Virus record (IMG/VR): IMGVR_UViG_3300031857_016023
Span: 32,001-96,000 of that record
Origin: a virus
Length of the DNA: 64,000 nucleotides
Reading direction: 5' to 3' (one strand)
The position numbers and the translations under genes were made by a program. Shown piece by piece: positions 1 through 54,651 of this stretch; within the stretch, counting starts at the first letter, position 1, and the number at the start of each line of letters is the position of its first letter. The notes below the pieces were generated by a model. The model saw nothing but the letters and a program-made list of their open reading frames with translations. It did no database searches and had not been told where the DNA came from.

Positions 1-1465
1 AGATATTATATTCTTGATTTCCGTATTCACAATTAAAACCTAAATCCATAGCACGAACGGCACCTGATTCAGTAAAACCATAAACAACAAACGGAATGTT
101 CACTTTGCGGCAGAACATCGACAATACCAAAATCTGCTCAATAGAACCAGACATATTCTTTGACATTGAACCTGAACGGTCAAGTAACAATACCAGGCCA
201 TGCGATTTGCCTTTGGGTGTCATCATTACTTTACGGAAAATGTTGTCATCAAATTTGTACGATGATAATTTGTTAATGTCAATATCGCCTGTGTCAGACA
301 GTTTAGATTTACTAAATGCTTTGGCAGCCTTACGCATTTCAAATTCTTTCGCAAGTAGACCAATGTACCGCTCATTACGGCGTTTGAATTCATTGACCAA
401 CTCCATTGCTTTTTCTGGTTTAAGGTATTTCTCTTTAACGAACTTGGCATATTCTTTTGTCATCAACTCCTGAACTCGCTTCGCAGGTGTAATGATATTG
501 TTCATGTTTGGCTTAGGAATATCCACATACAAAAACTCTTTGCACTTATCATCAAGCAATTGCACTTCGTTACGGCGATAGTTTTGATCCGTTTCACAAG
601 TAGGGTCAAATTGGTCAACATCACCAGGATGAGATTCTTTATCGTGGTTAATGCTATTACCATTCTCTAATTCATCGTCACCTGGTTCTTCACCACCAGC
701 TTGACTGCGTTTAGATTTAGTATCGCCTTCTTCAAACTCATCACTTGGAGAATTGCCTTCACCTTTACCATCTTCATCATCTTCACCGTCATCACCATAG
801 TCAGAATCATAATCAGACATATCATAGCCGTCATCATCGCTTTCATCGGCCATATTCGCCATCATGTCATCATAATACTGTAATGCCATTTCATGTTGTT
901 CTTCTTTTGAATACTCATACACCTTGTTAGTGATACGAACAACATCGTCCCAGGTTTCTGCAGCCTGAACTTCTTTCACCAATAATTCTTCTTTAGCAGA
1001 GAATTGAATCCATGTGGAAGACCATTGTGATTTGCTGAATAGATTCAGTCGGTCAATAAATGGCATTTCGTTTACCTCACGACCTTTAATACCAAAGAAA
1101 TCACGGATATTTAATTCTTGGTATGCTTGACGGAAAGAAGAATTTAAACCAGGATATTTGCGTTTAACTTTCTTTTCGATACGAGCATCTTCAATGACAT
1201 TCAAAAAGTTTTTGTAATTTTTGTTCTTGTCATTGTCCATCACCGCATCGTGCCAACCTTCGGCAGGAGTATAGAGAGCATGACCAACTTCATGGCCAAC
1301 CAACAGGTCATAGATAATACCTGTCATGTTTTGCCAGATAGGCAAATAGAGAATACGATTCTTGGTATCAAATTTAGCGGTGTTGATTTTCTGGTGCTGA
1401 ACCGAAAGATTCTCGGTTGCCAGTAATTTCGCTAATTGGGATTTTTGTTCGGCAGTAAAAGACAT
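1..1465 (-). CDS. CobT-like metallopeptidase + vWA domain protein (runs off window start; absent from ORF track)
   Basis: Hand translation from ATG at 1465 gives MSFTAEQKSQLAKLLATENL...HEVGHALYTP (HExxH), NVIEDARIE, an acidic linker, then LLLDRSGSM (MIDAS DxSxS). GAGG RBS and a consensus promoter lie upstream. Confidence 0.85.
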   Translation of the reverse strand, partial: MSFTAEQKSQLAKLLATENLSVQHQKINTAKFDTKNRILYLPIWQNMTGIIYDLLVGHEVGHALYTPAEGWHDAVMDNDKNKNYKNFLNVIEDARIEKKVKRKYPGLNSSFRQAYQELNIRDFFGIKGREVNEMPFIDRLNLFSKSQWSSTWIQFSAKEELLVKEVQAAETWDDVVRITNKVYEYSKEEQHEMALQYYDDMMANMADESDDDGYDMSDYDSDYGDDGEDDEDGKGEGNSPSDEFEEGDTKSKRSQAGGEEPGDDELENGNSINHDKESHPGDVDQFDPTCETDQNYRRNEVQLLDDKCKEFLYVDIPKPNMNNIITPAKRVQELMTKEYAKFVKEKYLKPEKAMELVNEFKRRNERYIGLLAKEFEMRKAAKAFSKSKLSDTGDIDINKLSSYKFDDNIFRKVMMTPKGKSHGLVLLLDRSGSMSKNMSGSIEQILVLSMFCRKVNIPFVVYGFTESGAVRAMDLGFNCEYGNQEYNI

Positions 1466-1492
1466 AATACCCTCATTCATTATTATTTAACC

Positions 1493-1521
1493 ATTATAAC
1501 ATTACCCGGCCTGCCTGTCAA
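1493..1521 (-). promoter_or_regulatory. sigma70-type early promoter
   Basis: TTGACA-17 nt-TATAAT, a perfect consensus, 28 nt upstream of the ATG at 1465. Confidence 0.9.
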
Positions 1522-1527
1522 CCACTT

Positions 1528-1545
1528 TGTTGTATAAAAACAACA
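1528..1545. promoter_or_regulatory. Inverted repeat just upstream of the -35 box (operator-like)
   Basis: TGTTGT-ataaaa-ACAACA. Confidence 0.45.
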
Positions 1546-1595: not shown

Positions 1596-1659
1596 TGGAG
1601 CGGTTAACAGGAGTTAAACCTGTCTGCCTACGGGGGTAGGCTGTTCTCGGACTCACCGC
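1596..1659 (-). ncRNA. Non-canonical tRNA-Gly-like RNA (64 nt, no D stem, encoded CCA)
   Basis: GCGGTGA GTCCGAGAACA GCCTAC CCCC GTAGGC AG ACAGG TTTAACT CCTGT TAACCGC T CCA. Acceptor stem has 6/7 pairs, T stem is 5 bp with a 7-nt loop, the anticodon-like hairpin is C-rich, discriminator is U73. TATAAT at 1670-1675 lies upstream. Confidence 0.75.
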
Positions 1660-1681
1660 ATGAAAGGATATTATACGCTAC

Positions 1682-2959
1682 TTATCGACCCACTTGAGGC
1701 AGATATTTAGCCTTTGTTTCTTCCCATGATAACACGGTAAGGTCATCATAGAAAAGAGTGTCAGAAGAAACTCTGCCTTTTTTAACCAACTGCTTGATTC
1801 TTGGTTTGGCGTGCTTCTCTTTCCATATATTACTTAGGCTTTCTACATCAGTATTAAACAACTTTTTCATATCTTTGCCATCATTATCGCCTCGGAGAAA
1901 TTCACAAGTCTTATCATACAGAGGCGCAAAGTAAATGCCTCTTGCATGTTCAGAACGAATCAAATCTTTTGGCACACTTAACTTAGCATAAGCAAAAGAC
2001 AATGAACGATTTTTGTGGTCACGCTTATGAGGTTGACCACTTGGTTTCTTTGCAACATACCATTCAAAATACTTCCGTGTATGATTCACTTTCAACCACT
2101 CACGAATCATATACCGAGTTTCTTGTAATGGTTCAAACGATACTGAACCTGAGGTAAAGCCCATTGGCTGCCAGAAATCCAGATTATCATATTGAGATAA
2201 ACCACCAGCTTTTGTTTTACCATAAAGTGATGTTGTTGTGATACTTACCAACTTATCACCATATAGTTTCTCCCATAATTGTTGTATGGGTGTGGCTAAA
2301 CAAAGCAAAGCCAACAATTTACCACCAACATAATTAAAACCAAGAGGTTGTAATGGCACAATCGTAGAACCAATTGCAGTATGGTTAATCATACCACCTT
2401 GTGTTTTCTTTTCTCTACTCCAACCAATAAAGTTATCTCTTGGTGTTAAATCTAAAAAGTCAGATGAAATACAAATAACACCAAGGTATTTCTGTGTTGG
2501 TTTATCTTTAACAATAAAGTTTAGATTACGACCAATGTTAGCATTGTTTTTCATTGTAGAAGAAAAGGTACGAATACAATTCCACAATTCAGGTAAGTCA
2601 TCCTGTTTATTCGCATACACCAGTTCAGGTTCTAATGCCAAGTATGCTTCGGGATCATTTGGTATCCAAAAGTTATTTTTTATTTCCTGAATAGCACGGC
2701 GTTGGCCTTCATCTTCCAATAATCGTTCTTCACCCCATAAAGTTTGTGATACGATAGATGGATATTTCTCCTGCACCTCACACCACTTCTGAAACAAGGT
2801 ATACTCTTTCACATCCATTTGTGAAACATAACCTAGTTCTTTAATGGTCTGCTCACGCAGTTCATCTTCGGTGAAAGACAATGGTTGAATTGGCGTTTGT
2901 TCTTGCCATTTTTGCCATTGGGTTTCTACATCATCTTTTGGATCAAAGCTGTATGCCAT
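1682..2959 (-). CDS. DUF4338 / Druantia DruA-like protein
   Basis: Motifs GRNLNFIVKD..LGVICISSD..RDNFIGW, VPLQPLGFNYVGGKLLALL and ITTTSLYG...SQYD. Confidence 0.7.
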   Translation of the reverse strand: MAYSFDPKDDVETQWQKWQEQTPIQPLSFTEDELREQTIKELGYVSQMDVKEYTLFQKWCEVQEKYPSIVSQTLWGEERLLEDEGQRRAIQEIKNNFWIPNDPEAYLALEPELVYANKQDDLPELWNCIRTFSSTMKNNANIGRNLNFIVKDKPTQKYLGVICISSDFLDLTPRDNFIGWSREKKTQGGMINHTAIGSTIVPLQPLGFNYVGGKLLALLCLATPIQQLWEKLYGDKLVSITTTSLYGKTKAGGLSQYDNLDFWQPMGFTSGSVSFEPLQETRYMIREWLKVNHTRKYFEWYVAKKPSGQPHKRDHKNRSLSFAYAKLSVPKDLIRSEHARGIYFAPLYDKTCEFLRGDNDGKDMKKLFNTDVESLSNIWKEKHAKPRIKQLVKKGRVSSDTLFYDDLTVLSWEETKAKYLPQVGR

Positions 2960-6489: not shown

Positions 6490-7119
6490 TCAATAATTAG
6501 TTACTTTATAATCGGACAAACAATATAAAGAATCACGAGCACCATCAAAAATTTTGTTGTAACCTATATCTTTCATTAGCTGGTCAAATTCACCACGATT
6601 GGTGCCTGTTAAATAATGTTCAAATGTTACCACTTCAGCCCAAACACATTTAGGTTTACAATCACCAACATTTTGAAATACTTTTAATTCAGCACCTTCA
6701 ACATCGATGTGAACAAAGTCAGGTATGACATTAAACCTTTTGCAAAATGTTTCTAAACGAATTGCTTTAGCATCATATGGTTCACCATAAATTTTACCAT
6801 GATTGTCTTGTGGATTTACTGTAAAGATACTGCCAGAATCTGGATGATGGTGGCCGTTTTGTGTTAGTGATGGATTAAATGGTATTGTTCCATCAACATG
6901 ACAAACAGCAGCATGAAAATAATGGATGCCATTATCAAATGCTCGTTTAGAATTGTTTTCATACCATTCATTCGAACATTCAAAGGCATAGATTTTAGCC
7001 CTTGGAATTTCTTGTCTAACTTTTATGGAATCATCCATATTCATACAACCAACATCAAAGAAAACAAAATTGTTCTCATCAAAATTTTGTTTGACCCAAT
7101 TTAAATTTAAATCACTCAT
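6490..7119 (-). CDS. FkbM-family methyltransferase
   Basis: FFDVGC, IYAFEC, HIDVEGAELKV. Confidence 0.8.
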   Translation of the reverse strand: MSDLNLNWVKQNFDENNFVFFDVGCMNMDDSIKVRQEIPRAKIYAFECSNEWYENNSKRAFDNGIHYFHAAVCHVDGTIPFNPSLTQNGHHHPDSGSIFTVNPQDNHGKIYGEPYDAKAIRLETFCKRFNVIPDFVHIDVEGAELKVFQNVGDCKPKCVWAEVVTFEHYLTGTNRGEFDQLMKDIGYNKIFDGARDSLYCLSDYKVTNY

Positions 7120-7294
7120 TTATTTTTACCTTTAAACTTTGTATTTCGTCTTTAAGCCTAAGTTTTCTTTTCTTAATCATGGTAACTAATCTATCTTCAC
7201 CATAATGTTTTATTTGTTCAGCTAATTGAACATCCAATTCATCATGTTCTTGCTGTAAATGTTTGATATGATTTTTTATTTTTTCTGCATCCAT
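7112..7294 (-). CDS. DUF465/YdcH-like small coiled-coil protein
   Basis: HLQQEHDELD...IKKRKLRLKDEI. Confidence 0.75.
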   Translation of the reverse strand: MDAEKIKNHIKHLQQEHDELDVQLAEQIKHYGEDRLVTMIKKRKLRLKDEIQSLKVKINE

Positions 7295-7426
7295 TTACCA
7301 CTCCAAAGCTTTAATATCTGACATATCACATGGGTTTTCTTTACTGCAATTCTTATGCACATAATAGATTAAAGGTACACAAGCGGTCATTGTAACACAA
7401 ATAAACAAAATAATCAAGCGTTTCAA
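7295..7426 (-). CDS. Putative 43-aa lipoprotein (not in ORF track)
   Basis: TTG start overlaps the gp55 stop. Translation MKRLIILFICVTMTA-CVPLIYYVHKNCSKENPCDMSDIKALEW. Its TAA abuts the next ATG. Confidence 0.6.
   Translation of the reverse strand: MKRLIILFICVTMTACVPLIYYVHKNCSKENPCDMSDIKALEW
7389..7417 (-). promoter_or_regulatory. sigma70-type promoter upstream of the DUF465-FkbM-gp47-gp46 genes
   Basis: TTGATT-17 nt-TACAAT. Confidence 0.55.
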
Positions 7427-7965
7427 GGCAAATCTTCTTCAATAAATTTTTCTAAACCTTTAGTCTTGCCTTCTTTCTTCTTGCGTTTATTTTCTTCAAA
7501 ATTGTAGATGAATTCGGAGATGTTTTCATAAAGTTCAAACTGCCTCATATTTCCGTTCTCATCTTCCATCATTTCAAACTCATCTAATATACCAAACTGT
7601 TCTGTTGCCTTATATTTGACATACAGTTGTTTCTTTTCTTTCATAATACGGCGAAGAAATGCGTAGTAGATGATCTGTGTAAAGTAAGCAAATGGGTTCT
7701 TTGATTTGTCAGGATCAAAGTTACGAAAATACATAAGGCAGTTTTCAATACCATCTGCAATCATCTCATCTCGGAAAGAATATGATATGAAGTTGGGTTT
7801 GCGTGACAGGTGGTCAGCAATCTTTAGAAAACACTCACCAATATAATTTGGTATTTGTGGATCTGGCTTGTTTTTCTTTTTGGCCTCATCACAAGCCTTC
7901 TTGTATTCAATCAATGCTGATAGAAAATCGGCATTGTTCACATAATGTTTAGTTGCTTTTGTCAT
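7423..7965 (-). CDS. gp55: Late-transcription sigma factor
   Basis: HYVNNADF, YIGECFLKIA, NFISYSFRDEMIADGIEN, NPFAYFTQI. Confidence 0.97.
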   Translation of the reverse strand: MTKATKHYVNNADFLSALIEYKKACDEAKKKNKPDPQIPNYIGECFLKIADHLSRKPNFISYSFRDEMIADGIENCLMYFRNFDPDKSKNPFAYFTQIIYYAFLRRIMKEKKQLYVKYKATEQFGILDEFEMMEDENGNMRQFELYENISEFIYNFEENKRKKKEGKTKGLEKFIEEDLP

Positions 7966-8404
7966 CTTCGCCTCTTTTTACGCTTGACATATGTAATAAT
8001 GGTGGTGTTCCGGTTGCAAGTAATTTATTACTAACTATATCCAGGAGCTTAAACACTCTCTTTCTATAATCAAATCCTAACATTGAAGCTTTCTCCCCTT
8101 TATTATAAGGTGGTGTTCTTCCTGTTGAGTGATACTGATCCGCTGTAATGTCAATTCTTTCTCCTTCTTTAGTAACTGCCCACCAATGCCAGATACCTTC
8201 ATCATCCAAACCACGGTATAACTTAATGTTCTTACTACCAAACAATTTCTGTAAACAAGCAGAAGCGGTATGACAATGACCAAACATAGGATTTGTAGAG
8301 TTTCTTTCCACCCACTTCTTAGGTAAAAGGTCTGGCGTTAAGTGTTTGGTAATTATATCACAAGCCTTATCTAAAAGCAAGCGGTTATATTCAAACATTT
8401 CCAT
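7949..8404 (-). CDS. Hypothetical protein, YunG-like with possible Cys-His-Asp triad
   Basis: GHCHTAS..LQKLFG, HWWAV, IDITADQY. Confidence 0.55.
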   Translation of the reverse strand: MEMFEYNRLLLDKACDIITKHLTPDLLPKKWVERNSTNPMFGHCHTASACLQKLFGSKNIKLYRGLDDEGIWHWWAVTKEGERIDITADQYHSTGRTPPYNKGEKASMLGFDYRKRVFKLLDIVSNKLLATGTPPLLHMSSVKRGEDDKSN

Positions 8405-9314
8405 ATTTGGTATTCTTTAGCATGGCATATCCTTTAAGTAACTCTTGAATACCCATATCTAAATCAAAGTTAGGTTTAAATCCTTCCTTTTCAATCTTTT
8501 CATTGGAGACCATGTAGTTTCTTTGGTCTTTATCTTTACCAATTTCTGCTTCAACAATTTCAAATCGTGGTACATATTTTTTAATCGTATCACACAGTTC
8601 ACGCTTTGATACATTGGCAGATGAAAGGCCTATATTATAAATTTGGCCTCTCATATTCTTATTTTCTAATGCCATTGTAAATGCTTGGCATACATCTAAT
8701 ACATGAATATAATTTCGTTTAAAGTGTGATTCAAATAACACAACGAAACCATCATTGACAGCACGGTAAGTCATATCATTTACCAACAAATCAATTCTCA
8801 TTCTTGGTGACATACCAAATACAGTTGCAAGCCTAAAACTTGTGGCATTTGGATGTTCCATCAAAACCTTTTCTACTTCTACTTTATCTTTAGCATATCT
8901 AGAAATAGGATTCAATGGTGAATTTTCATCACAATAATCACCTGTACCATAAGCACTATTGGTAGTAGGCATCAAAACAATTTGTTCTTGTGACAGGTAC
9001 TTCATCATCATAAAAATAGCATCTCTGTTTGTAGAAGATGCTCCAATTGGATCTCTATCACATAAAGGTGCACCAACATAAGCTGCAAGAGGTATAATTA
9101 TATCAGCTTGTTTTAGAATTGGCAATAGGTCTGCTTCTACTCTTACATCACCACGATAAATCCTAAAATTTGGGTGATAGCATAATTGGCCAAGTGATGA
9201 TTGTTGGTACATAAAATTATCTAACACAGTAACATTATGACCTAAACCTAATAGGTCTTGTGATAACATCGACCCAATATAACCTGCACCACCTGTAACT
9301 AATATATTTGCCAT
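8391..9314 (-). CDS. NAD-dependent epimerase/dehydratase/reductase (extended SDR)
   Basis: TGGAGYIG, YAKDK (YxxxK), RLATVFG. Confidence 0.9.
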   Translation of the reverse strand: MANILVTGGAGYIGSMLSQDLLGLGHNVTVLDNFMYQQSSLGQLCYHPNFRIYRGDVRVEADLLPILKQADIIIPLAAYVGAPLCDRDPIGASSTNRDAIFMMMKYLSQEQIVLMPTTNSAYGTGDYCDENSPLNPISRYAKDKVEVEKVLMEHPNATSFRLATVFGMSPRMRIDLLVNDMTYRAVNDGFVVLFESHFKRNYIHVLDVCQAFTMALENKNMRGQIYNIGLSSANVSKRELCDTIKKYVPRFEIVEAEIGKDKDQRNYMVSNEKIEKEGFKPNFDLDMGIQELLKGYAMLKNTKYGNV

Positions 9315-9315
9315 A

Positions 9316-10485
9316 TTAAGCCTCGTTTAATGTTTTGGTAATAAAATCAATTTCATCTAATTGCATTGATGGGAAATTACCAATATAAAATCCATAAAAA
9401 TGAATATGTTCAGTATTTGGAAAATTCAAATGATAGTTTTCTGGCACAATATTTTTAAGGTATGGTTGTCTTGTTTGATTACCACCACCTGCACTTCCAC
9501 GGCGAAATTCAATGCCTTCTTCTTTCATTCTCGTCATAATTCTATTTGCGAAATCTTGGTCTTTATCATTGAGTATTAGATTGAAAGCATAGTTACTAGA
9601 GCCTATTAATTTAAAGCCAGTAAAAAATTTCTTTGGGCTTAACTTAGATAAAAACCTTTCGTGATTTCTATTCCGTAGTTTAACATTTTCATTTAATTTT
9701 GGCAACTGTGAAAGACCAAGTATACCGCCTAAATCGGTGTTACGCATATTGTATGCTGGGTAAGCAAAGATAAAATCAGGATTCAACTGTGGGTATTGTA
9801 TCTTGTAAGCCAGTTTCATTTTTTCATTACCACATTCTCTGACCATACCATGTGAACGAAGCATGCGAATTGTATTGTAAACTTCTTCATCGTTGGTACA
9901 AACCATACCGCCTTCAATCGTTGTCATATGGTGTGCGTAATAGAAAGAGAAATTGGACATCCATCCAATACTGCCGCAAAGCTTCTCTCCGTGTCTTGCG
10001 CCATGCGACTCGCAAACATCTTCAATCAATGGAATGTTGTTTCTAGCTAGAGTTGATATGAGATCATCAGTTAATGCATTAAACCCTTGAATATGTGATA
10101 AAAATACAGCACGGGTATTTGGAGTAATTGCACGAATGATAGAATCAGGATTCATACCTAAAGTGTCCATATCCACATCAACGAATACTGGTGTAAATCC
10201 ACATTGAATCACAGAGGCAACATCAGATATCCATGTTAAAGGTGGAACAATTACTTCACCGCCTTGTGGATATTTTATCTTCAACATGGTCATTGATAAT
10301 AAATTGGCAGATGCGCCAGAGTTTACAAATACGGAATACTTTACGCCTAACCATTTCGACCAAGCTTCTTCAAACTCTCGGCATTTTGGACCGTTAGTTA
10401 GAATAGGGTCATCTTGTTTTAGATGCTCAATCATGGCATCTAAATCTTGTCTTGTAACATTATTTCTCATCAAAGGAAATTTCAT
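9316..10485 (-). CDS. DegT/DnrJ-family PLP enzyme, ColD/E1-type 3-dehydratase
   Basis: VNSGASAN, EDVCESHG, SFYYAHHMTTIEGG (His at the usual Schiff-base Lys position). Confidence 0.85.
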   Translation of the reverse strand: MKFPLMRNNVTRQDLDAMIEHLKQDDPILTNGPKCREFEEAWSKWLGVKYSVFVNSGASANLLSMTMLKIKYPQGGEVIVPPLTWISDVASVIQCGFTPVFVDVDMDTLGMNPDSIIRAITPNTRAVFLSHIQGFNALTDDLISTLARNNIPLIEDVCESHGARHGEKLCGSIGWMSNFSFYYAHHMTTIEGGMVCTNDEEVYNTIRMLRSHGMVRECGNEKMKLAYKIQYPQLNPDFIFAYPAYNMRNTDLGGILGLSQLPKLNENVKLRNRNHERFLSKLSPKKFFTGFKLIGSSNYAFNLILNDKDQDFANRIMTRMKEEGIEFRRGSAGGGNQTRQPYLKNIVPENYHLNFPNTEHIHFYGFYIGNFPSMQLDEIDFITKTLNEA

Positions 10486-10492
10486 TTTAACC

Positions 10493-11482
10493 TCACGAAT
10501 TGTTTAATATAACTTGAGTACCATGATTATCGAACTTAAATGGCACCCATACCTTTATTTGTTCCATCTTTAACTTGAATTCTTTTTGTTGATCTGGCGG
10601 CACAAGAAACATAAAGAAACCGCCGCCGCCTGCACCCATTAGTTTACCACCATAAGCACCACTTTCAATGGCTGTATAATATATGTCATCTATCCATGGT
10701 TCAGTAACACCATCTGCTAGACCTCGTTTAATTTCCCAAGCTTTGTGCATCAACTCACCTATTATAAACATTTCTTTTTCTTTGGCAAGCATATCGATAG
10801 CTTCGTTTGCTAAGTTTACCGTTTCTAATAAAAGACTATCTGTTTTGCCTTCTTTGATATTATCTACCTTTTTCTTTGCTTGAATTTCTGAGTGTCGAGA
10901 AACACCAGAAAAACCAAGCATGATGTGTGATTCTAGATATGTTTTATAATCTAAATTCATTTTAAATGATTTGGCATCCCAACCTTCACTCGACATAGAA
11001 ATAACTTGAATACCGCCAAGTGCAGACATAATTTGATCTTGTATGCCAACATTTTCGCCAATAATATCTTGTTCAACTTCAATGGCTCTTTCTGCTAATT
11101 CTTTCTGTGTTAAATTATATTTCTTTAAACGATAGATTGCATTTAACAAACCTACTGTAAAGGTTGATGATGAACCAATACCAGACCTTGCAGGTAAATC
11201 ACCTTCATGGCTAATAGAAATGTTTTCTGTTATATTGGTGTATTGCAAACAAGCACGTATAGCTGGGTGATCAATATCTTCTATTGAATTAACATTTTCT
11301 ATTTTTGAATAAGTTAAACGAATGGTATGGTCAAAAAATGGCGGCAATTCTTTTATATGAACATAACAGTAATGTGCCATTGCAGCAGATATACATTTAC
11401 TTGGATGTTTTGAAAACCAAGCAGGGTAATCGGTGCCGCCACCAAACAAAGAAAGTCTATAAGGAGTTTTTGTAATAATCAT
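10493..11482 (-). CDS. GHMP sugar kinase (HddA/heptose-7-phosphate kinase-like)
   Basis: RLSLFGGGTDYP, LPARSGIGSSS, GIQDQ, GGKLMGAGGGGF. Confidence 0.9.
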   Translation of the reverse strand: MIITKTPYRLSLFGGGTDYPAWFSKHPSKCISAAMAHYCYVHIKELPPFFDHTIRLTYSKIENVNSIEDIDHPAIRACLQYTNITENISISHEGDLPARSGIGSSSTFTVGLLNAIYRLKKYNLTQKELAERAIEVEQDIIGENVGIQDQIMSALGGIQVISMSSEGWDAKSFKMNLDYKTYLESHIMLGFSGVSRHSEIQAKKKVDNIKEGKTDSLLLETVNLANEAIDMLAKEKEMFIIGELMHKAWEIKRGLADGVTEPWIDDIYYTAIESGAYGGKLMGAGGGGFFMFLVPPDQQKEFKLKMEQIKVWVPFKFDNHGTQVILNNS

Positions 11483-28790: not shown

Positions 28791-31700
28791 TTAATATTCT
28801 GGAAGATCATTACCATTTTCGGGATCAACATTTGCTTTTTTGATAAACAAAACTAACGATCCACCAGGCTTTATATCAACCCATTTATCATAAGGGCTAA
28901 TATATCCTACTTGTACAGGACTACTCCTATAGGCATTAGAATTGTCAACAGTATAACCATGAATTCCGACATTCCCACCCCAGGCCCACATAGTACCATT
29001 GGTTTTCATAGCTCCAGCTGCACCGTGAGCATCAAATGTCATATGCCAATTAGTATTGGCACCAATTTGATTAGGTGAAGATCGGCTAACGCCACCCCCT
29101 TCAGAATTACCTGTGATGCCGTATAATTGACTCCCAGTCGCCCAAAGTGTTCCATCTGTTTTAACAAAAAGAAGGTTTTGGTTTAAAAGTGTAACCGATT
29201 TCCAATTAGTTTCAGTACCTAATTGTGTTGGAGATGACCTTCTTACAACTACTCCTTCATTTAATCCAAGTTTACCGTAAGCATTTCCACCCCATAACCA
29301 AAGTGTTCCATCATCTTTTAAAGCAGCTTTGCCACCATTTCCTATTCTGTCCGAAAATAATTTTTTCCAACCAGCATATGTTCCAACTTGAGTTGGACTT
29401 GATCTATTGGCTGTATCATTAAGACCTAATTGAGCAACAGCATTTTTTCCCCAAGTCCATAAAGTTCCAGTACCTTTTAAAGCCATTACACTATCAACAC
29501 TAGCTATAACATCTGTCCAAGTATTACTTGTTCCTATTTGCACAGGTGAAGAAAATGCAGCATTAAAAGCACCATCTAAACCTAATTCTCCACTTGATTG
29601 TGTGCCCCAACCCCAAAGTGTTCCATCCATCTTTAAAGCAACAGTAAAATCTAATCCTTTACTGACAGTTCTCCAACTACCACCTCCAAGGACTTGTACA
29701 GGAGAACTTATATAATTAGTTGCATTATCACCTCTTTGACCACCAGTTCCCGTTCCCCAAGACCATAAAGTGCCATCTGTTTTGATGGCTGATCCTGTTT
29801 TTATTTGGGTATAACCTGCACCTGTAGCCAATTTTTTCCAATTTGTAGCTGTTGTAAGTTGAACTGGTGAAGAAATATTTTGGCCTGGACGTCCTAGTAA
29901 AATACCATTACTGAAACCGTCACTACCAATTCCCCACAATTGTCTTTCAGGACCACCACTACCACTAGAAGCCGCCGCAGCTGCAGCATTGGCCGCAGCA
30001 AAGGCACCGTTAGCATATACACCAGCAGAAGTAGCATTGACATTTGCTGAGTTAGCAGCTGTAAATGCAGCAGTAATAGAATTGTTTTGTGTTATATTTG
30101 TAGTAGTAGCTGCATTAGCAGCAGCAAAGGCACCATTAGCATAAACTCCAGCAGAAGTAGCAATGACACTTACTGTATTGGAATTAGCAAAGGCACCGTT
30201 AGCATAAACTCCAGCAGAAGTAGCAACGGCATTTGCTGAGTTAGCAGCTGTAAAAGCAGCATTAGCATGGATAAAAGAACTGTTAGCATGAATAAAAGAA
30301 CTGTTAGCATGAATGAAAGCAGCATTAGCATGATTTCTAGCAAAACTATCAGAAGCGAATAAAGCTGCATTTGCAGCTGCAAAAGCACCATTAGCGTAAA
30401 TACCAGCAGAATTAGCAGCTATGAAAGCATTGTTAGCATGAATGAAAGCAGCATTAGCAACAGCAAAAGCACCAACACTATTAGCTGCATTAGCTAATGC
30501 AGAATGACTAATAATTACAATATTGCCATTAGAAAAATTAGCTGAAGCTCCGTTTTCATATTTGTAAATTTTACCTTCAGCTGACGTAGGAACTTTCCAA
30601 TATACAGAACCAGCAAATTTAGGGGTACTGCTATAAGATGCGCCAGTTATAGAACTTGTATTAGCAGTAGAAACATAAGCTACATTTCCTGTAAATTCAG
30701 TATTACTATCATCAAGAAGTCTAAAGTAACTAGAACTTCCACTACGATCTTGGTTAAAATTAAAATCAAAAACATATGTTTGACCTGATATAACATATAT
30801 TGTTGGGTAATTTCCTGAATATTGATCTATTTGCCAATTGGCTCCACTAGCTCCTTCAGTAATTCTAAATTTTGTAGCTGCAGGTGTTAATGATCTATAA
30901 ATTGCTGTGTTTGATGCGGTATTAGCAGCACTAAATGCAAGACCACCATCAGCTGGACTTTGTACTCTAATAGAACCAAAAATTGAATTATATGTGGTAT
31001 CACCGTAGCCAAGAGTGGTATTACCAACTAAACTGGTAGGTGCGGTCCAATATAAAATACCATTTGTATATCCAGATGTTGCATTTGAAGTAACTACTCC
31101 AGAAGATGAAACGTGTGTAACTCCTGAGAGAGCACTACCGCTTGCAAAAGGAGAAGCGGTATATAATTTAAAACCACCAAAACCAGAACCTTCTATAGCA
31201 CTAACGTCAAAAGCATATGTTTGCCCAGCAATAACATTTAATGTTGGGCTATTAGCTGTTGGACCAGCAATATCAGGAAATCTATAACGAAAAGAAATTC
31301 CGCCTTCTTGGAAAACAACAAGTCTTTGTTTTGTAGCTGAAATAAAATTTGTTCTATAAGCAATATTAGCAGTATTATTGGCAGTATTTGCTGTCAAAAA
31401 CGCTGCGTTAGCAGTATTTCTTGCAACTTGATCTGCTCCACTAGCATTGTTAGCAGCTAAAAATGCAGCATCAGCAGTATTTTGTGCATTGGTAATATTG
31501 GTATTCTGTGTAGCATTAACACCAGCTTCATTGTTAGCTGCTGCAAAAGCAGCTGTAATGCTATTATTTTGTGTAGTGTTTATACCATCAATATTATTAG
31601 CAGAAGCAAAAGATGCATTTGCTGTATTATAAGCACCATCAATATATGTTTGTAAATTTTGGTTGTTTAATGTAATTAATTGAGTTTTTAAGTTAGCATT

Positions 31701-33980
31701 AAGAGTTGCTTTTTTGAATGAAGGATCTGTAATAATAACGTCATTATTCGCACCAATTTCACCTGTATAACCTTCAAACAGTTGCCACTCTTTTGTTCCG
31801 TGATCTCGAATTAAACCAGTATGAGCATTGACACCATCGTTATAGTGTGCTGAAATACCAATATCTAATAAATCGGAAGTATAATTGCCAGCACCAAGAA
31901 GAATAACAGTATCATTAGCAACGATTGTTGTAGCACTTATAGTAAATGTATTTCCTAAAACACTTAGGTTACCTGTAATGCTAACATCACCAGTAATTGT
32001 TCCGCCGTTGTTTGCATTGAGGGAATTATTAGCACGAATAAATGCGGCGTTTGCTGTATTAAAAGAAGGTTGTATTTGAGGAAATACATTATTAGCTGCA
32101 TTGAAGGAAGCATTAGCGTGAATAAATGCAGCATCACCGGTATTTTGAGCATTGGTAATATTGGTATTCTGTGTAGCATTTACACCAGCTTCATTGTTGG
32201 CTTTAAGGAAAGCCGCATCACCGGTATTTTGAGCGTTGGTAATGTTTGTATTTTGTGTAGCATTAACACCAGCTTCATTATTAGCTTTGGCAAAAGCACC
32301 ATTAGCCGTAGTAAAAGCTGGTTCAATTTGTGGTGCTACATTATTAGCTGAAGCAAAAGCTGCATTAGCATGATTTCTAGCATAAGGATCAATCTCATCA
32401 CCAGGCACATAGGCTGTAGTTTGAACTGTGCTATCAGGAAATGTTATTGTTCCATCTTTATTAAAATTCCATTGTGAGAAGGTTGCACCACCAGTATTTG
32501 CTTGTATTATAACCTCTGTATTTGCATATACTGTTGATACACCTGTTGCTAGAGCAATAAAACCAGAAACATCAGTATCAACATTTGCGGTAATTGCTAT
32601 TTGATTTGTTGGTAAATTTAATATTCCACCACCGCCACCAAATTTTAAATCTCCGGTCATTGTGTCGCCGGACTTACTTACTTTGGTGTTAGCAGAAGCA
32701 AAAGCTCCATTAGCAGTATCTCTTGCAACTTGATCTGAACCTGAGATTTGTGTTGGTGGTTGCCCGCCAACAGAAACAGCCAAAGTACCATTTTGATTGC
32801 TTAATACTAACCCACCTAAATCAATTGATCCTGGCCCAACATAAAGAGAATGCCAACGATTAGAATCTGAACCAAGGTAATAAGTGTTAGTAGTGGTTGG
32901 TAATAAATTTCCACTAATTGCACCGCCAGTATTTGCATTAAGAGAATTGTTAGCACGAATAAATGCAGCATCACCGGTATTTTGAGCGTTGGTAATGTTT
33001 GTATTTTGTGTAGCATTAACACCAGCTTCATTGTTGGCTTTAAGGAAAGCCGCATCACCGGTATTTTGAGCATTGGTAATATTGGTATTCTGTGTTGCAT
33101 TTACACCAGCTTCATTATTGGCTGCATTGAAAGAAGCATTAGCATGAACGAAACCGGCATCTGCTGTATTTTGAGCTATTGTTATATTGGTGTTTTGAGT
33201 TGCATTAACACCAGCTTCATTATTGGCTGAAGCAAAAGCACCATTAGCATAAAATCCTGCTGAAGTACCTTTATTATCTGCTGTTGCAGCTGCTGTTCTA
33301 GCTACGTTGTCGATTGATGCACCACCTGATATAGTATTAGCATAATCAAATGCAGCATTAGCATAATTCCAAATATACGATATATTGGTATTTTGAGTTG
33401 CATCTACTGTATTGGAATAAGCAGCTGCACTATTAGCAACATCAAATGATGCATTAGCATGGCCAAAAGAACTGTTAGCATGGTTCCTAGCAAATTGTAT
33501 ACTGGTATTCTGAGAATCACTTACGGTATTGGAGTAAGCAGCTGCACTATTAGCAATATCAAATGAAGCATTAGCATGGTTCCTAGCAAATTGTATACTG
33601 GTATTCTGAGAATCACTTACGGTATTGGAGTAAGCAGCTGCACTATTAGCAATATCAAATGAAGCATTAGAATGGTTTCTAGAATAAGGATCAACCTGAG
33701 TATCACTTACAATAGTATTAGCGTAATTAAAAGCAGCTTGAGCAAGAACACTAGCTGAATTAGCAGCTGTAAAAGCTCCATTAGCGTAAATACTAGAACT
33801 ATTGGCTAATGCAAATCCAGCGTTAGCTTGTAAAAATGCAGCACTAATGCTATTGTTTTGTGTGCTATTTGTATTGTATAACTCAGTAAAGTTATTGTTT
33901 GTTTTGGTAAATCCAACTCTTATTCGATCACCAGTTCCATCGTTTGCAACTGTACCAATATTAATCGATTCTTTTGCCAT
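28791..33980 (-). CDS. Long fibre-like virion protein: gp9/gp10-like N-terminus, Asn/Ala heptad stalk, C-terminal RCC1/BLIP-II-like propeller
   Basis: INIGTVANDGTGD..R..F.K.N.NF.ELY; many AxxxANxA repeats; repeated KTDGTLWxWG / SSPVQ. Confidence 0.85.
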   Translation of the reverse strand: MAKESINIGTVANDGTGDRIRVGFTKTNNNFTELYNTNSTQNNSISAAFLQANAGFALANSSSIYANGAFTAANSASVLAQAAFNYANTIVSDTQVDPYSRNHSNASFDIANSAAAYSNTVSDSQNTSIQFARNHANASFDIANSAAAYSNTVSDSQNTSIQFARNHANSSFGHANASFDVANSAAAYSNTVDATQNTNISYIWNYANAAFDYANTISGGASIDNVARTAAATADNKGTSAGFYANGAFASANNEAGVNATQNTNITIAQNTADAGFVHANASFNAANNEAGVNATQNTNITNAQNTGDAAFLKANNEAGVNATQNTNITNAQNTGDAAFIRANNSLNANTGGAISGNLLPTTTNTYYLGSDSNRWHSLYVGPGSIDLGGLVLSNQNGTLAVSVGGQPPTQISGSDQVARDTANGAFASANTKVSKSGDTMTGDLKFGGGGGILNLPTNQIAITANVDTDVSGFIALATGVSTVYANTEVIIQANTGGATFSQWNFNKDGTITFPDSTVQTTAYVPGDEIDPYARNHANAAFASANNVAPQIEPAFTTANGAFAKANNEAGVNATQNTNITNAQNTGDAAFLKANNEAGVNATQNTNITNAQNTGDAAFIHANASFNAANNVFPQIQPSFNTANAAFIRANNSLNANNGGTITGDVSITGNLSVLGNTFTISATTIVANDTVILLGAGNYTSDLLDIGISAHYNDGVNAHTGLIRDHGTKEWQLFEGYTGEIGANNDVIITDPSFKKATLNANLKTQLITLNNQNLQTYIDGAYNTANASFASANNIDGINTTQNNSITAAFAAANNEAGVNATQNTNITNAQNTADAAFLAANNASGADQVARNTANAAFLTANTANNTANIAYRTNFISATKQRLVVFQEGGISFRYRFPDIAGPTANSPTLNVIAGQTYAFDVSAIEGSGFGGFKLYTASPFASGSALSGVTHVSSSGVVTSNATSGYTNGILYWTAPTSLVGNTTLGYGDTTYNSIFGSIRVQSPADGGLAFSAANTASNTAIYRSLTPAATKFRITEGASGANWQIDQYSGNYPTIYVISGQTYVFDFNFNQDRSGSSSYFRLLDDSNTEFTGNVAYVSTANTSSITGASYSSTPKFAGSVYWKVPTSAEGKIYKYENGASANFSNGNIVIISHSALANAANSVGAFAVANAAFIHANNAFIAANSAGIYANGAFAAANAALFASDSFARNHANAAFIHANSSFIHANSSFIHANAAFTAANSANAVATSAGVYANGAFANSNTVSVIATSAGVYANGAFAAANAATTTNITQNNSITAAFTAANSANVNATSAGVYANGAFAAANAAAAAASSGSGGPERQLWGIGSDGFSNGILLGRPGQNISSPVQLTTATNWKKLATGAGYTQIKTGSAIKTDGTLWSWGTGTGGQRGDNATNYISSPVQVLGGGSWRTVSKGLDFTVALKMDGTLWGWGTQSSGELGLDGAFNAAFSSPVQIGTSNTWTDVIASVDSVMALKGTGTLWTWGKNAVAQLGLNDTANRSSPTQVGTYAGWKKLFSDRIGNGGKAALKDDGTLWLWGGNAYGKLGLNEGVVVRRSSPTQLGTETNWKSVTLLNQNLLFVKTDGTLWATGSQLYGITGNSEGGGVSRSSPNQIGANTNWHMTFDAHGAAGAMKTNGTMWAWGGNVGIHGYTVDNSNAYRSSPVQVGYISPYDKWVDIKPGGSLVLFIKKANVDPENGNDLPEY
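33475..33670. repeat. Perfect 96-bp tandem duplication inside the fibre gene
   Basis: 33475-33570 is identical to 33571-33666 and encodes NASFDIANSAAAYSNTVSDSQNTSIQFARNHA. Confidence 0.9.
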
Positions 33981-50941: not shown

Positions 50942-52195
50942 TCAATAATACAAATTAGAAATAGCGGCAATTGTATTGTTTCCACTTAAATATGGTGTAA
51001 AAAGTTTTGAGCTGGAGATTGTACTCCATTTTCTGTCTGTGACTATTTGAACAGGAGAAGATACTCCTATTGCACCTCTTGTACCTTGTGGAGATTCTTG
51101 ATTATTTCCAAATACTCCGGCTTCATTTCTTCCCCAAGCCCATAATGTTCCATCTTCTTTAAGAGCAAAAGAAGTATCTTGTGAAACGGAAATTTCTGTC
51201 CAATCACTTCTACTGGATATTTGTGTTGGAGAAGATCGTTGTGCTAAACCTAAGCCAGCTTCTGATCCAATTAAAGGCAAACCTAATTGTCCATAACCAT
51301 TAGATCCCCAACCCCAAAGAGTTCCATCGGTTTTAATAGCTAAAAAATGTATGTCTGCTGCTAGCGAATTTGGCCCAGCAATTTTTTTCCAATTAGTTGA
51401 AGAATCGAATTGAACCGGAGAAGATCGGTCTACTTTTATTCCTAAACGCTCTTGAGTTTGGCCCCAAACCCAAAGAGTTCCGTCAACTTTAATAGCTGTC
51501 ACTACATTTTGGCGTGAAGAAGGATTAACAAATTTCCAAGTCCTGTCTAATCCAATTTGAACTGGAGAAGATCGATGTAAAAGAACACCACTATTAATAC
51601 CTAAAGTACCATAATCATTAGAACCCCAAGAGTATAATCTACCTTCATCTTTATCGCCTCTAATAGCAAATGTTGTATCTAATCCACAAACAACATATTT
51701 CCACCAAGTGTTTGATCCAATTTGAACAGGAGAAGATACACTAATACTTATGCTAGTATTAGTTCCTAGTTGACCGTATTCATTTCTTCCCCAACTCCAT
51801 AATGTTCCATCCGTTTTTACAGCGCTACTATGTGCATTACCAGCAGATATATGAGCCCAATTTGTATCAACTCCAATTTGAACAGGAGAAGATAAATTGA
51901 TTGTTGTGCTATTTCCTAATTGGCCATATTCGTTTTTTCCCCAACTCCATAATGTTCCATCCGTTTTTAACGCTAAGGCATGACCAGATATATCAATTTC
52001 TTTCCAAAATTGGGAAGATTGTAATTGTACAGGTGATGATCTGGAAATTGTTGTTCCGTCACCAATAATACCAGATCTTCCGTCAGGTGAATTATCTCCC
52101 CAAATGAATATATGACCAAATTTTGTTACCCTTTTTAAAATATTAGGTTTTAAAAATCTAGAAGTAACGTCTTTATTCCTCGATCTATATGTCAT
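50942..52195 (-). CDS. RCC1/BLIP-II-like beta-propeller protein
   Basis: About seven repeats of KTDGTLWxWG.N..GQLG...SSPVQIG. Confidence 0.9.
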   Translation of the reverse strand: MTYRSRNKDVTSRFLKPNILKRVTKFGHIFIWGDNSPDGRSGIIGDGTTISRSSPVQLQSSQFWKEIDISGHALALKTDGTLWSWGKNEYGQLGNSTTINLSSPVQIGVDTNWAHISAGNAHSSAVKTDGTLWSWGRNEYGQLGTNTSISISVSSPVQIGSNTWWKYVVCGLDTTFAIRGDKDEGRLYSWGSNDYGTLGINSGVLLHRSSPVQIGLDRTWKFVNPSSRQNVVTAIKVDGTLWVWGQTQERLGIKVDRSSPVQFDSSTNWKKIAGPNSLAADIHFLAIKTDGTLWGWGSNGYGQLGLPLIGSEAGLGLAQRSSPTQISSRSDWTEISVSQDTSFALKEDGTLWAWGRNEAGVFGNNQESPQGTRGAIGVSSPVQIVTDRKWSTISSSKLFTPYLSGNNTIAAISNLYY

Positions 52196-53433: not shown

Positions 53434-54651
53434 TTATTTAAAACCTGGATCTTTTAAAGCCAAAAAATTTACACTACCCGTCACGCCTGAGGCCGACTGG
53501 ATTGTAGAAATCTTTCTAAATCCAACATTTGATGTAACGGGTATTGGGGCAGTCGCATGAAGTGTCAAGAGTTGAACTGGAGATGATCGATAAGGAATCC
53601 ATGTTCCGTCAGCTGTATTTGAAGGATTATAACTCCATGTGCCCCAAACCCAAAGAGTTCCATCTGATTTTATGCCCATACCGTGATTGCTACCAGAAAA
53701 AAACTTGTTTCCGCCAATTTCCACATATCTCCATGGAAGTTGACCATTACCTTGTCCAAGCACCTGAACAGGAGAGCTTCTAGAAATATTTGTACCATCA
53801 CCAAGTTGTCCTACTGTATTACTTCCCCAAGCCCATAATGTTCCATCGGTTTTAAATGCTGTAATTCCTCCAGAATTAACTGATCTCCAATTCGTGTTTG
53901 CTCCAATTTGAACGGGTGACGAATACTCTTTACCAAATGGAGAAGTTTCAGCCGGATTTAAACGAGCAGCGTTGCCCCATAACCAGAGAGTTCCATTTGA
54001 TTTAATAGCTGCTCTAACAGAACTAGAACTACTAATATATTTCCAATTTGTGTTTGTTCCAATTTGAACAGGAGAGCTTCTGGGAATTATCGTATTATCA
54101 CCAACTTCACCATTAGAATTAAAGCCCCAAGACCAAAGAGTTCCATTATTTTTAAGGGCTAATCCATATTCTATTGCAAACCAATCATTTGAACTACCAA
54201 TTTGAGTAGGAGAAGAACGATCAATTAGGTCACCAAGACCTAGGCCACCAACATTATTAAGCCCCCAAGACCAAATAGTTCCATCAGTTTTAACAGCGTT
54301 AGCCACATAACTGAAAGCTGAAATTTTTTTCCAATTTCTGTTTGTTCCAATTTGAACTGGTGATGTAATATTTGTTCCTGGAGCACTTCCAGTATACCAT
54401 TGTGGGTCATATCCGTAAGCCCATAATGTTCTATCCGATCTGATAAGAAAAGCATAATTTGAGCCTGGATCTCCCTCTATTTCTCTCCAAGAAGCTGAGT
54501 TTGCTGTTACATCATAAAATTTTTCTCCATTGCTATTTCTATTGTAATAATGCCATACTGTTCCACCAATGGTTATACTATCTAAAAATTCAAGATCGGT
54601 ATCAATTGCATCGCTTAAAAGATCTTGATCAGTATTAACTTTAAATACCAT
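53434..54651 (-). CDS. RCC1/BLIP-II-like beta-propeller protein
   Basis: Same repeat. Confidence 0.9.
   Translation of the reverse strand: MVFKVNTDQDLLSDAIDTDLEFLDSITIGGTVWHYYNRNSNGEKFYDVTANSASWREIEGDPGSNYAFLIRSDRTLWAYGYDPQWYTGSAPGTNITSPVQIGTNRNWKKISAFSYVANAVKTDGTIWSWGLNNVGGLGLGDLIDRSSPTQIGSSNDWFAIEYGLALKNNGTLWSWGFNSNGEVGDNTIIPRSSPVQIGTNTNWKYISSSSSVRAAIKSNGTLWLWGNAARLNPAETSPFGKEYSSPVQIGANTNWRSVNSGGITAFKTDGTLWAWGSNTVGQLGDGTNISRSSPVQVLGQGNGQLPWRYVEIGGNKFFSGSNHGMGIKSDGTLWVWGTWSYNPSNTADGTWIPYRSSPVQLLTLHATAPIPVTSNVGFRKISTIQSASGVTGSVNFLALKDPGFK

Follow-up and report, generated by a model that had tools for sequence, protein, structure and literature searches.

A conserved miniature tRNA-Gly-like RNA gene behind a DruA-family gene in T4-like phages, a candidate nondecoding glycine carrier

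The phage Mu enzyme Mom transfers glycine from Gly-tRNAGly to the N6 position of adenine in double-stranded DNA (Silva et al., PMC13219725). All tRNA-Gly isoacceptors serve Mom, and the authors, in the portion of that paper available, suspect recognition of the acceptor end and mention neither DruA nor tRNA-like or private RNAs (PMC13219725). Staphylococcus aureus and Staphylococcus epidermidis possess nonproteogenic tRNA-Gly species, NP1 to NP3, that donate glycine to FmhB, FemA, and FemB; according to the available sections of the source, those of S. aureus carry A49-U65 and A51-U63 pairs and bind EF-Tu weakly (PMC7826273). Here we describe a 64-nt RNA gene from an uncultured T4-like myovirus, found in a 64,000-nt stretch of its 123.8-kb record (IMG/VR record IMGVR_UViG_3300031857_016023, positions 32,001 to 96,000; the whole stretch is called the window below). 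The element is a genuine, conserved structured RNA gene that lies directly behind a gene of the DruA/DUF4338 family, and the best explanation of its sequence would be that of a phage gene for a miniaturized, nondecoding descendant of tRNA-Gly. No publication on this RNA family turned up in our literature searches; a survey of jumbo phages (PMC7824862) treats Mom and, in the part of it available, no such RNA.

An earlier note, made from the letters of the window alone, had described a 64-nt tRNA-like RNA with particular ends, T stem and loop, central hairpin, and upstream TATAAT, and the sequence proved to be as described, on the minus strand. A position p in the RNA lies at 1660 − p in the window, which puts G1 at 1659 and A64 at 1596. 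The parts of the element are as follows.

1596..1659, minus strand: mini tRNA-Gly-like RNA gene, type A, 64 nt, recognized by sequence, fold, covariation, and model R1.
1600..1659, minus strand: acceptor stem, with its 5' strand at 1659..1655 and its 3' strand at 1604..1600; five pairs, then G6.A67 and A7-U66.
1643..1652, minus strand: shrunken D arm, RNA positions 8 to 17, GUC CGAG AAC; in the window copy, two pairs and a C.A mismatch.
1626..1641, minus strand: remnant of the anticodon arm, with five covarying pairs plus G19-C34 and a CCCC loop at 1635..1632.
1607..1623, minus strand: T arm, with stem A49-U65, C50-G64, A51-U63, G52-C62, G53-C61 and the 7-nt loop UUUAACU.
1596..1599, minus strand: discriminator U73 and genome-encoded CCA, invariant in the type A alignment A1.

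The RNA begins with GCGG and ends with CCGCTCCA, the acceptor helix GCGG...CCGC being followed by UCCA. The central hairpin is GCCTAC-CCCC-GTAGGC, a 4-nt loop closed by a C-G pair, and the T arm is encoded as ACAGG/CCTGT around TTTAACT. The three-way-junction fold had a minimum free energy of −22.9 kcal/mol (z = −3.54), a value equaled by none of 200 shuffles. The canonical acceptor/T-arm architecture is present, with five acceptor pairs plus two noncanonical positions, a 5-bp T stem, a 7-nt T loop, UCCA, and covariation. The five acceptor pairs are of Watson-Crick type, but the stem is not one of seven clean pairs, given G6.A67 and a variable position 7:66. A canonical D arm with G18 and G19 is absent, the family having a 3-bp ministem with a 3- to 7-nt loop and no GG, and a canonical anticodon loop of 7 nt with U33 is absent from the window RNA, which has the 4-nt CCCC instead.

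The expectation that tRNA finders would miss the element was borne out. ARAGORN called no tRNA gene anywhere in the 123.8-kb record, the window included, and of the 34 calls that its permissive mitochondrial mode yielded over the record, none falls on the element; Rfam 15, including RF00005, gave no match over 1596 to 1659 even at an E value of ≤10. Model R1 scored the element at 89.5 bits and found it to be the sole copy within the record, which is 69% complete and showed no other gene of tRNA shape. A widespread class of phage RNA genes escapes Rfam and the standard tRNA finders.

A search of IMG/VR with the DruA-like protein encoded next to the RNA matched 349 stretches, of which 347 proved to be relatives; we retained 80 loci. 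The RNA element was found behind the DruA-like gene in these relatives, where its conservation exceeds that of the protein. We aligned 23 distinct variants of the type seen in the window, called type A (alignment A1). All 15 core pairs were intact in all 23 variants (345/345 pair cells, 100%), and six of the 15 had changed on both sides; two of these six belong to the T stem, three to the central hairpin, and the remaining one to the acceptor stem. The covariation score was reached by 0 of 500 shuffles, and slid controls were only 35 to 54% paired. Acceptor pairs 1 to 4 did not vary; pair 5 was U-A in most (17 variants) and A-U in the other 6, position 6:67 was G.A, and position 7:66 was not conserved across type A. 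Also invariant were the 10-nt D region, GUCCGAGAC-A, the CCC of the central loop, the T loop, the A51-U63 pair of the T stem, and the 3' sequence CGCUCCA. A scan of IMG/VR with a pattern built on the RNA only retrieved at least 118 stretches, and model R1 gave 99 matches in 100 of the pattern loci listed. Thirty-seven type A pattern loci in cellular genomes of unrelated taxa were taken as chance, R1 having scored only two of them (22.8 and 16.2 bits), and ARAGORN found no tRNA in the better of the two. The match at L117, in a high-GC phage where it overlies a coding start and ribosome-binding region, was a chance one as well, and that at L239 was treated in the same way.

Because the stems covary, the window RNA is under selection and not decaying. 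This agrees with the earlier note's view of selection rather than decay, as neither the 23 type A variants nor the cross-type alignment A7 (13 sequences) displayed random decay of the stems. A decaying pseudo-tRNA, or a mere processing or terminator signal that closes the DruA-like mRNA, might be suspected from an RNA that starts 22 nt past a stop codon, that lacks a −35 box in the window copy, and that in two other phages is crossed by Mom reading frames (see below). However, compensatory changes occur in every helix, the loops and the 3' end are invariant, relatives have promoters of their own for the RNA, and the glycine marks are conserved far past the needs of a processing site. This explanation is largely refuted by the covariation, and we consider it very improbable.

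The type A RNAs belong to a family of shrunken tRNA-Gly look-alikes in phages, whose bodies fall into three types (A, B, and C), with intermediates being rare. Common to all of them are GCG...CGC-U-CCA ends and an NCC triplet in a 4- to 7-nt central loop. Our catalogue holds 82 distinct variants of 63 to 72 nt. The central loop of every one contains CC, preceded by C, U, or A (CCC, UCC, or ACC), under a parse that demanded CC and that none of the 82 failed. Type A loops are mostly CCCC or CCCA, with rare 6- to 7-nt loops containing CCC, UCC, or ACC, one of which is the 7-nt CUUCCCA. The central loop of type B is the 7-nt UGUCCAA, in which a UCC anticodon is combined with G33, and its T loop is UGCRAAU; type C has UCCC, UACCC, or CACCC and the T loop AGCAWAG. 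A type B pattern retrieved 44 further stretches, in which the RNA stood behind DruA-like genes, under a TTGACA promoter of its own, or within phage tRNA arrays, and some distant DruA-like loci carried two mini-tRNAs in tandem.

The identity set of bacterial tRNA-Gly consists of G1-C72, C2-G71, G3-C70, U73, C35, and C36. The acceptor members of this set, together with CCA, are present in the window RNA, as had been reported from its sequence, and they are invariant in the 23 type A variants and kept in types B and C, including B and C elements that were found by gene position alone, with no sequence pattern. The CC of the central loop stands for C35 and C36. In the simplest history, a tRNA-Gly ancestor would have lost anticodon-loop nucleotides step by step while positions 35 and 36 stayed under selection.

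These loops also bear on whether the RNA could be an odd but functional decoding tRNA-Gly. Type B keeps a 7-nt loop with UCC, A37, and A38, and D-arm-reduced tRNAs do decode in some mitochondria. On the other hand, the window loop is a 4-nt CCCC without U33, position 33 is occupied by G in type B, and both ARAGORN and Rfam reject the element. Moreover, ARAGORN called normal tRNA-Gly(UCC) or tRNA-Gly(GCC) in the same arrays as minis (L219, L221, and L207), and the minis were never called; because these normal tRNA-Gly genes are also carried, the minis in the arrays are not needed for decoding. We regard a decoding role as highly improbable.

One structural claim had to be given up. The segment between the acceptor stem and the central hairpin had been described as 11 unpaired nucleotides replacing the D arm, but the family has a covarying 3-bp D stem, which the window copy retains in weakened form. 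A 3-bp Watson-Crick stem opened the D region in 26 of 30 distinct family versions, compared with a proportion of 0.32 in shuffles, and enclosed a loop of 3 to 7 nt. Its forms include GUC/GAC, GUU/AAC, GUA/UAC, GUG/CAC, AUU/AAU, AGU/ACU, GAU/AUC, CUC/GAG, and CCG/CGG. In alignment A7, 10 of 15 pairs were compensatory, including all three D-stem pairs, and 97.4% of D-stem cells were paired; the sole unpaired cell was the window's own C10.A15, where an extra A turns GAC into GAAC. Judged from these alignments, the RNA is a miniature cloverleaf and not truly D-arm-less, with a marginal D stem in the window copy. A tertiary pair may join the final base of the D loop to T-loop position 56: the two resemble A:U in type A (46 of 76 parsed variants) and G:C in types B and C (19 of 76). 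This is a lead only, because some type C rows were parsed with the T arm shifted by one position.

The genes on either side of the RNA are the following.

1682..2959, minus strand: DruA/DUF4338-family gene (PF14236), 425 amino acids, with a GNAT-fold core at residues ~105 to 369.
2..1480, minus strand: phrog_459 ("peptidase") gene, the downstream neighbor, with its own perfect sigma-70 promoter.

The DruA-like gene lies between a peptide deformylase gene and the phrog_459 gene, and the RNA occupies a 201-nt intergenic gap, 22 nt downstream of the DruA-like stop codon. Among the matches listed from the RNA-only pattern, a DruA-like gene was directly upstream in 114 of 118 loci and phrog_459 was downstream in 111 of 118; the four listed loci without the DruA-like gene were three contig ends and one chance match. 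When we started from the protein, a mini-tRNA was found within 1,200 nt in 77 of the 78 DruA-like loci that had at least 120 nt of downstream sequence, and within 70 nt in 70 of them, the single locus without one having a flank of only 191 nt. For type B RNAs located in tRNA arrays, the DruA-like gene was elsewhere on the contig in four of five records, and in one of five in a second set with much shorter contigs. Where the DruA-like gene is 98% identical to that of the window and the promoter and downstream flank are shared, type C replaces type A (L006, L007, and L013; ~25 to 91 nt past the DruA-like stop codon). Because type C stands in the place of type A at near-identical loci, we take this as clean cassette replacement, in which the RNA slot is conserved and the body is exchanged.

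A second family of genes was found in the same arrangement. In two other phages, true Mom-family genes (PF25680; 179.6 and 153.8 bits) end just before divergent type-B-like RNAs. Among 10 IMG/VR loci of that Mom subfamily, five had a tRNA-Gly-like gene with encoded CCA that was detected by script, 42 to 46 nt past the Pfam match; three others show a tRNA-Gly-like gene by eye, without encoded CCA, and the remaining two show none. RNAs of one kind thus occur in the same place behind genes of two GNAT families, of which Mom is a proven user of Gly-tRNAGly. In L290 (G001:10018-10736) and L291 (G011:1321-1976), the open Mom frame continues across the tRNA-Gly-like gene, so that RNA and protein coding may overlap there, or the 3' end of the mRNA may itself be the RNA.

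The protein encoded next to the window RNA matched Pfam PF14236 (DruA, formerly DUF4338) over residues 108 to 357 with 73.6 bits, against a cutoff of 27 (E = 2e-20). We built an AlphaFold2 model from a 63-sequence alignment (mean predicted local distance difference test score, 94.8). In the exhaustive VIA structure search, this model retrieved GNAT-fold proteins throughout. The first was phage Mu Mom (8bv8_B; Z = 9.8; root mean square deviation, 4.0; 174 residues), followed by generic GNAT acetyltransferases (Z = 9.0 to 7.7), with FemA at Z = 8.0. Foldseek against the PDB returned only weak GNAT rows (E ≥ 0.014), and a sequence search of the PDB with the family profile gave a chance match only. 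In BFVD, the first named match was a phage Mom at rank 7 (E = 7.9e-3), after uncharacterized relatives. The nearest BFVD models include uncharacterized giant-virus proteins (Faunusvirus, Yasminevirus, and Dasosvirus), and DruA-like GNATs therefore extend beyond phages and bacteria. The modeled GNAT fold of the DruA-like protein is firm. In the searchable literature, we found no published function for DruA and no description of DruA as a GNAT. None of the type I Druantia partners druB to druE, including the DruE helicase, lies beside the window gene, whose neighbors are peptide deformylase and phrog_459.

We hypothesize, with a probability of about 0.5, that the RNA is a nondecoding glycyl carrier that is charged by the host glycyl-tRNA synthetase (GlyRS) and feeds the DruA-type enzyme. 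The RNA would be transcribed from its own −10 box or jointly with the DruA-like gene, and host tRNA-processing enzymes would trim it to G1 and CCA. Host GlyRS would then charge it with glycine by way of G1-C72, C2-G71, G3-C70, U73, and the CC of the loop. The 4-nt loop, and perhaps also weak binding to EF-Tu, would keep it out of translation, and its glycine would be handed to the DruA-type enzyme and from there to an acceptor. DNA is the leading candidate for that acceptor because of the analogy with Mu Mom, and the nonproteogenic tRNA-Gly of S. aureus, as the available part of its description presents it, would be a precedent for such partitioning. Every step past a conserved RNA gene linked to a GNAT gene is inferred.

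Several observations weigh against this hypothesis. A distant phage subfamily of DruA-like genes (L292 to L299, eight loci) had no mini-tRNA in its flanks, and no GCGG...CGCTCCA gene was found in five of its contigs of 30 to 105 kb; a search for distant DruA-like loci with query P0028 found none, and query P0070 led to this subfamily without the RNA. A private RNA is thus not always required by the enzyme family. The loop itself may pose a difficulty, as GlyRS may reject a 4-nt loop, and the D ministem is weakened in the window copy. The A49-U65 and A51-U63 pairs, which had been read as EF-Tu antideterminants, are present in the RNA and speak for the carrier, given the same pairs in the S. aureus nonproteogenic tRNA-Gly, but they may not discriminate, because the T stem of a normal 74-nt tRNA-Gly in these AT-rich phages is also A/U-rich. 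As for the enzyme, the structural lead of Mom over generic coenzyme A (CoA)-dependent GNATs is less than one Z unit, a tie by the rule of the tool, and a CoA-dependent reaction would be possible for a protein of the modeled fold. Pfam Mom (PF25680) did not match the DruA-like protein at an E value of ≤10, and hhalign gave a probability of 1.0% against Mu Mom and of 0.15% against a 30-sequence Mom alignment, neither of them significant, with a 13-column local match over an RGVY motif (E = 0.054). A specific kinship of the protein with Mom is therefore not established. Finally, contigs from RNA libraries of two studies span the element in relatives, with adapter-like loose ends adjoining 1659 and 1626, but transcription and ends are not provable from such contigs, which show no starts, ends, strand, or level and come from libraries in which DNA may be present; we drew nothing from them. 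In the distant subfamily, which lies on contigs of T4-like phages, a clamp-loader-like gene is found immediately downstream of the DruA-like gene.

The same linkage would be expected if the RNA were a partner of the DruA-like protein without being a donor, either as a substrate whose base or aminoacyl group is modified or as a bound regulator resembling an RNA antitoxin and restraining an acyltransferase that might be toxic. The invariant 10-nt D region of type A would suit contact with a protein, and GNATs with a tRNA substrate exist, namely, TacT, AtaT, and TmcA, as noted in the available portion of the Mom paper (PMC13219725). Against such a role, the full glycine identity set, including the loop NCC, persists across three body types and points to charging by GlyRS, and Mom, the sole characterized enzyme with such an RNA beside genes of its family, uses Gly-tRNA as a donor. 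We think this role unlikely, and slightly less plausible than the decoy considered next.

Conservation of the RNA is strongest at the acceptor end, U73, and CCA, and the body has been swapped among near-identical loci, which could reflect an arms race. Both features would suit a decoy or sponge that mimics an acceptor end and soaks up an immunity factor or toxin directed against tRNA 3' ends or Gly-tRNA-Gly, thereby sparing the decoding tRNAs; examples of such targets would be GNAT toxins that acetylate Gly-tRNA-Gly and nucleases or transferases directed at the CCA tail. tRNA genes carried against tRNA-directed defenses are frequent in phages, and immunity by cutting of tRNA tails has reportedly been published. 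However, a decoy leaves unexplained the fixed position of the RNA behind a gene of GNAT fold or behind true Mom genes. A decoy for anticodon nucleases, which the earlier note had offered as an alternative, is a poor fit to a window loop of only 4 nt. We therefore judge a decoy of either kind to be improbable, if somewhat less so than the other alternatives, and return to the glycyl carrier as the preferred explanation.

Two further parts flank the RNA.

1670..1675, minus strand: −10 box TATAAT, exactly 10 nt ahead of G1.
1493..1545, minus strand: conserved AT-rich hairpin (1545..1528) followed by the perfect sigma-70 promoter of the next gene (TTGACA at 1521..1516; TATAAT at 1498..1493), the downstream edge of the RNA cassette.

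The position of the TATAAT is exactly as had been reported, but no acceptable −35 box accompanies it in the window. Relatives have TTGACA-17-TAnnAT or the extended −10 sequence TGnTATAAT at the same spot. The AT-rich hairpin at 1528 to 1545 has arms TGTTG and CAACA with 8 nt between them and is kept, sometimes doubled, in most related loci. The hairpin-plus-promoter motif occurs once in the window and is thus not a dispersed repeat here. T4-type phages are known for promoter-early stem-loop cassettes, and the likeness of the motif to these could be a possible explanation for the swapping of RNA cassettes.

Elsewhere, the window encodes gp46/gp47-type recombination nucleases and peptide deformylase, as well as major head, portal, sheath, and terminase proteins. 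A run of genes at 6490 to 11482 (minus strand) has PHROG matches to a methyltransferase, a nucleotide-sugar epimerase, and an aminotransferase, which suggests a sugar modification module. Two PHROG matches to "regulator of chromosome condensation," with RCC1-like repeats, were found at 50942 to 52195 and 53434 to 54651 (minus strand); these RCC1-like proteins are probably part of the tail fiber or baseplate region. Two very long open reading frames, of 1,729 and 1,762 amino acids, lie at 28791 to 33980 and 57910 to 63198 (minus strand).

If the RNA is indeed a glycyl carrier, it would be the first virus-encoded RNA devoted solely to carrying an activated amino acid to a reaction other than protein synthesis. 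It would represent a tRNA stripped down so that the charging interface is kept and the decoding interface is dropped, and it would reveal how little of a tRNA is needed by GlyRS and by a transferase. The tRNA-dependent modification of DNA newly known from Mom would reach a far larger group of aquatic phages, and DruA, for whose role in Druantia the searchable literature offers no explanation, would gain its first biochemical hypothesis open to testing. More tentatively, and with odds that we place well below those of the carrier itself, several phage lineages may possess a self-contained, orthogonal glycine donor module, consisting of a nondecoding mini tRNA-Gly, charged by host GlyRS, and a GNAT (Mom type in certain phages, DruA type in this one), that adds glycine to nucleic acid, most likely to DNA of the phage itself, against restriction; by extension, bacterial DruA might be an aminoacyl-tRNA-dependent DNA modifier. 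Type II Druantia includes a methylase, with a self-marking role. Were the extension correct, DruA, encoded by the first gene of type I Druantia, would take such a self-marking role, and the phage copy could imitate the mark.

Four known systems lend themselves to comparison. In nematodes and other animals, mitochondrial tRNAs with a reduced D arm decode by means of an EF-Tu and ribosomes adapted to them and have a 7-nt anticodon loop. Like them, the phage RNA has a shrunken or missing D arm and keeps the acceptor/T-arm helix; unlike them, it has lost the anticodon loop and resides in a bacterial cell with standard machinery. The DruA protein of type I Druantia is of the same family (PF14236) as the window protein, which is encoded in a lytic T4-like phage without druB to druE. 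The staphylococcal NP tRNAs, as the available part of their description presents them, are, like the phage RNA, tRNA-Gly paralogues with GlyRS identity, both A49-U65 and A51-U63, and a nonstandard T loop; they are kept for glycyl transfer outside the ribosome, and the enzymes that use them have a GNAT/Fem fold, as does the GNAT encoded next to the window RNA. By the same description, they differ in being full-size cloverleaves with a normal anticodon loop, encoded on the chromosome and not in a cassette with their transferase genes, whereas the phage RNA is 63 to 72 nt long, has a 3-bp D stem and a 4- to 7-nt loop, is encoded by a virus, and is linked to an enzyme gene. Mu Mom, finally, is like the window protein a phage enzyme of GNAT fold and its best structural match (tied with generic GNATs), although the window protein is not a member of the Mom family by sequence and, at 425 amino acids, has extra N- and C-terminal parts. 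Mu relies on the tRNA-Gly of its host, whereas the phage in the window encodes an RNA of its own adjoining the enzyme gene.

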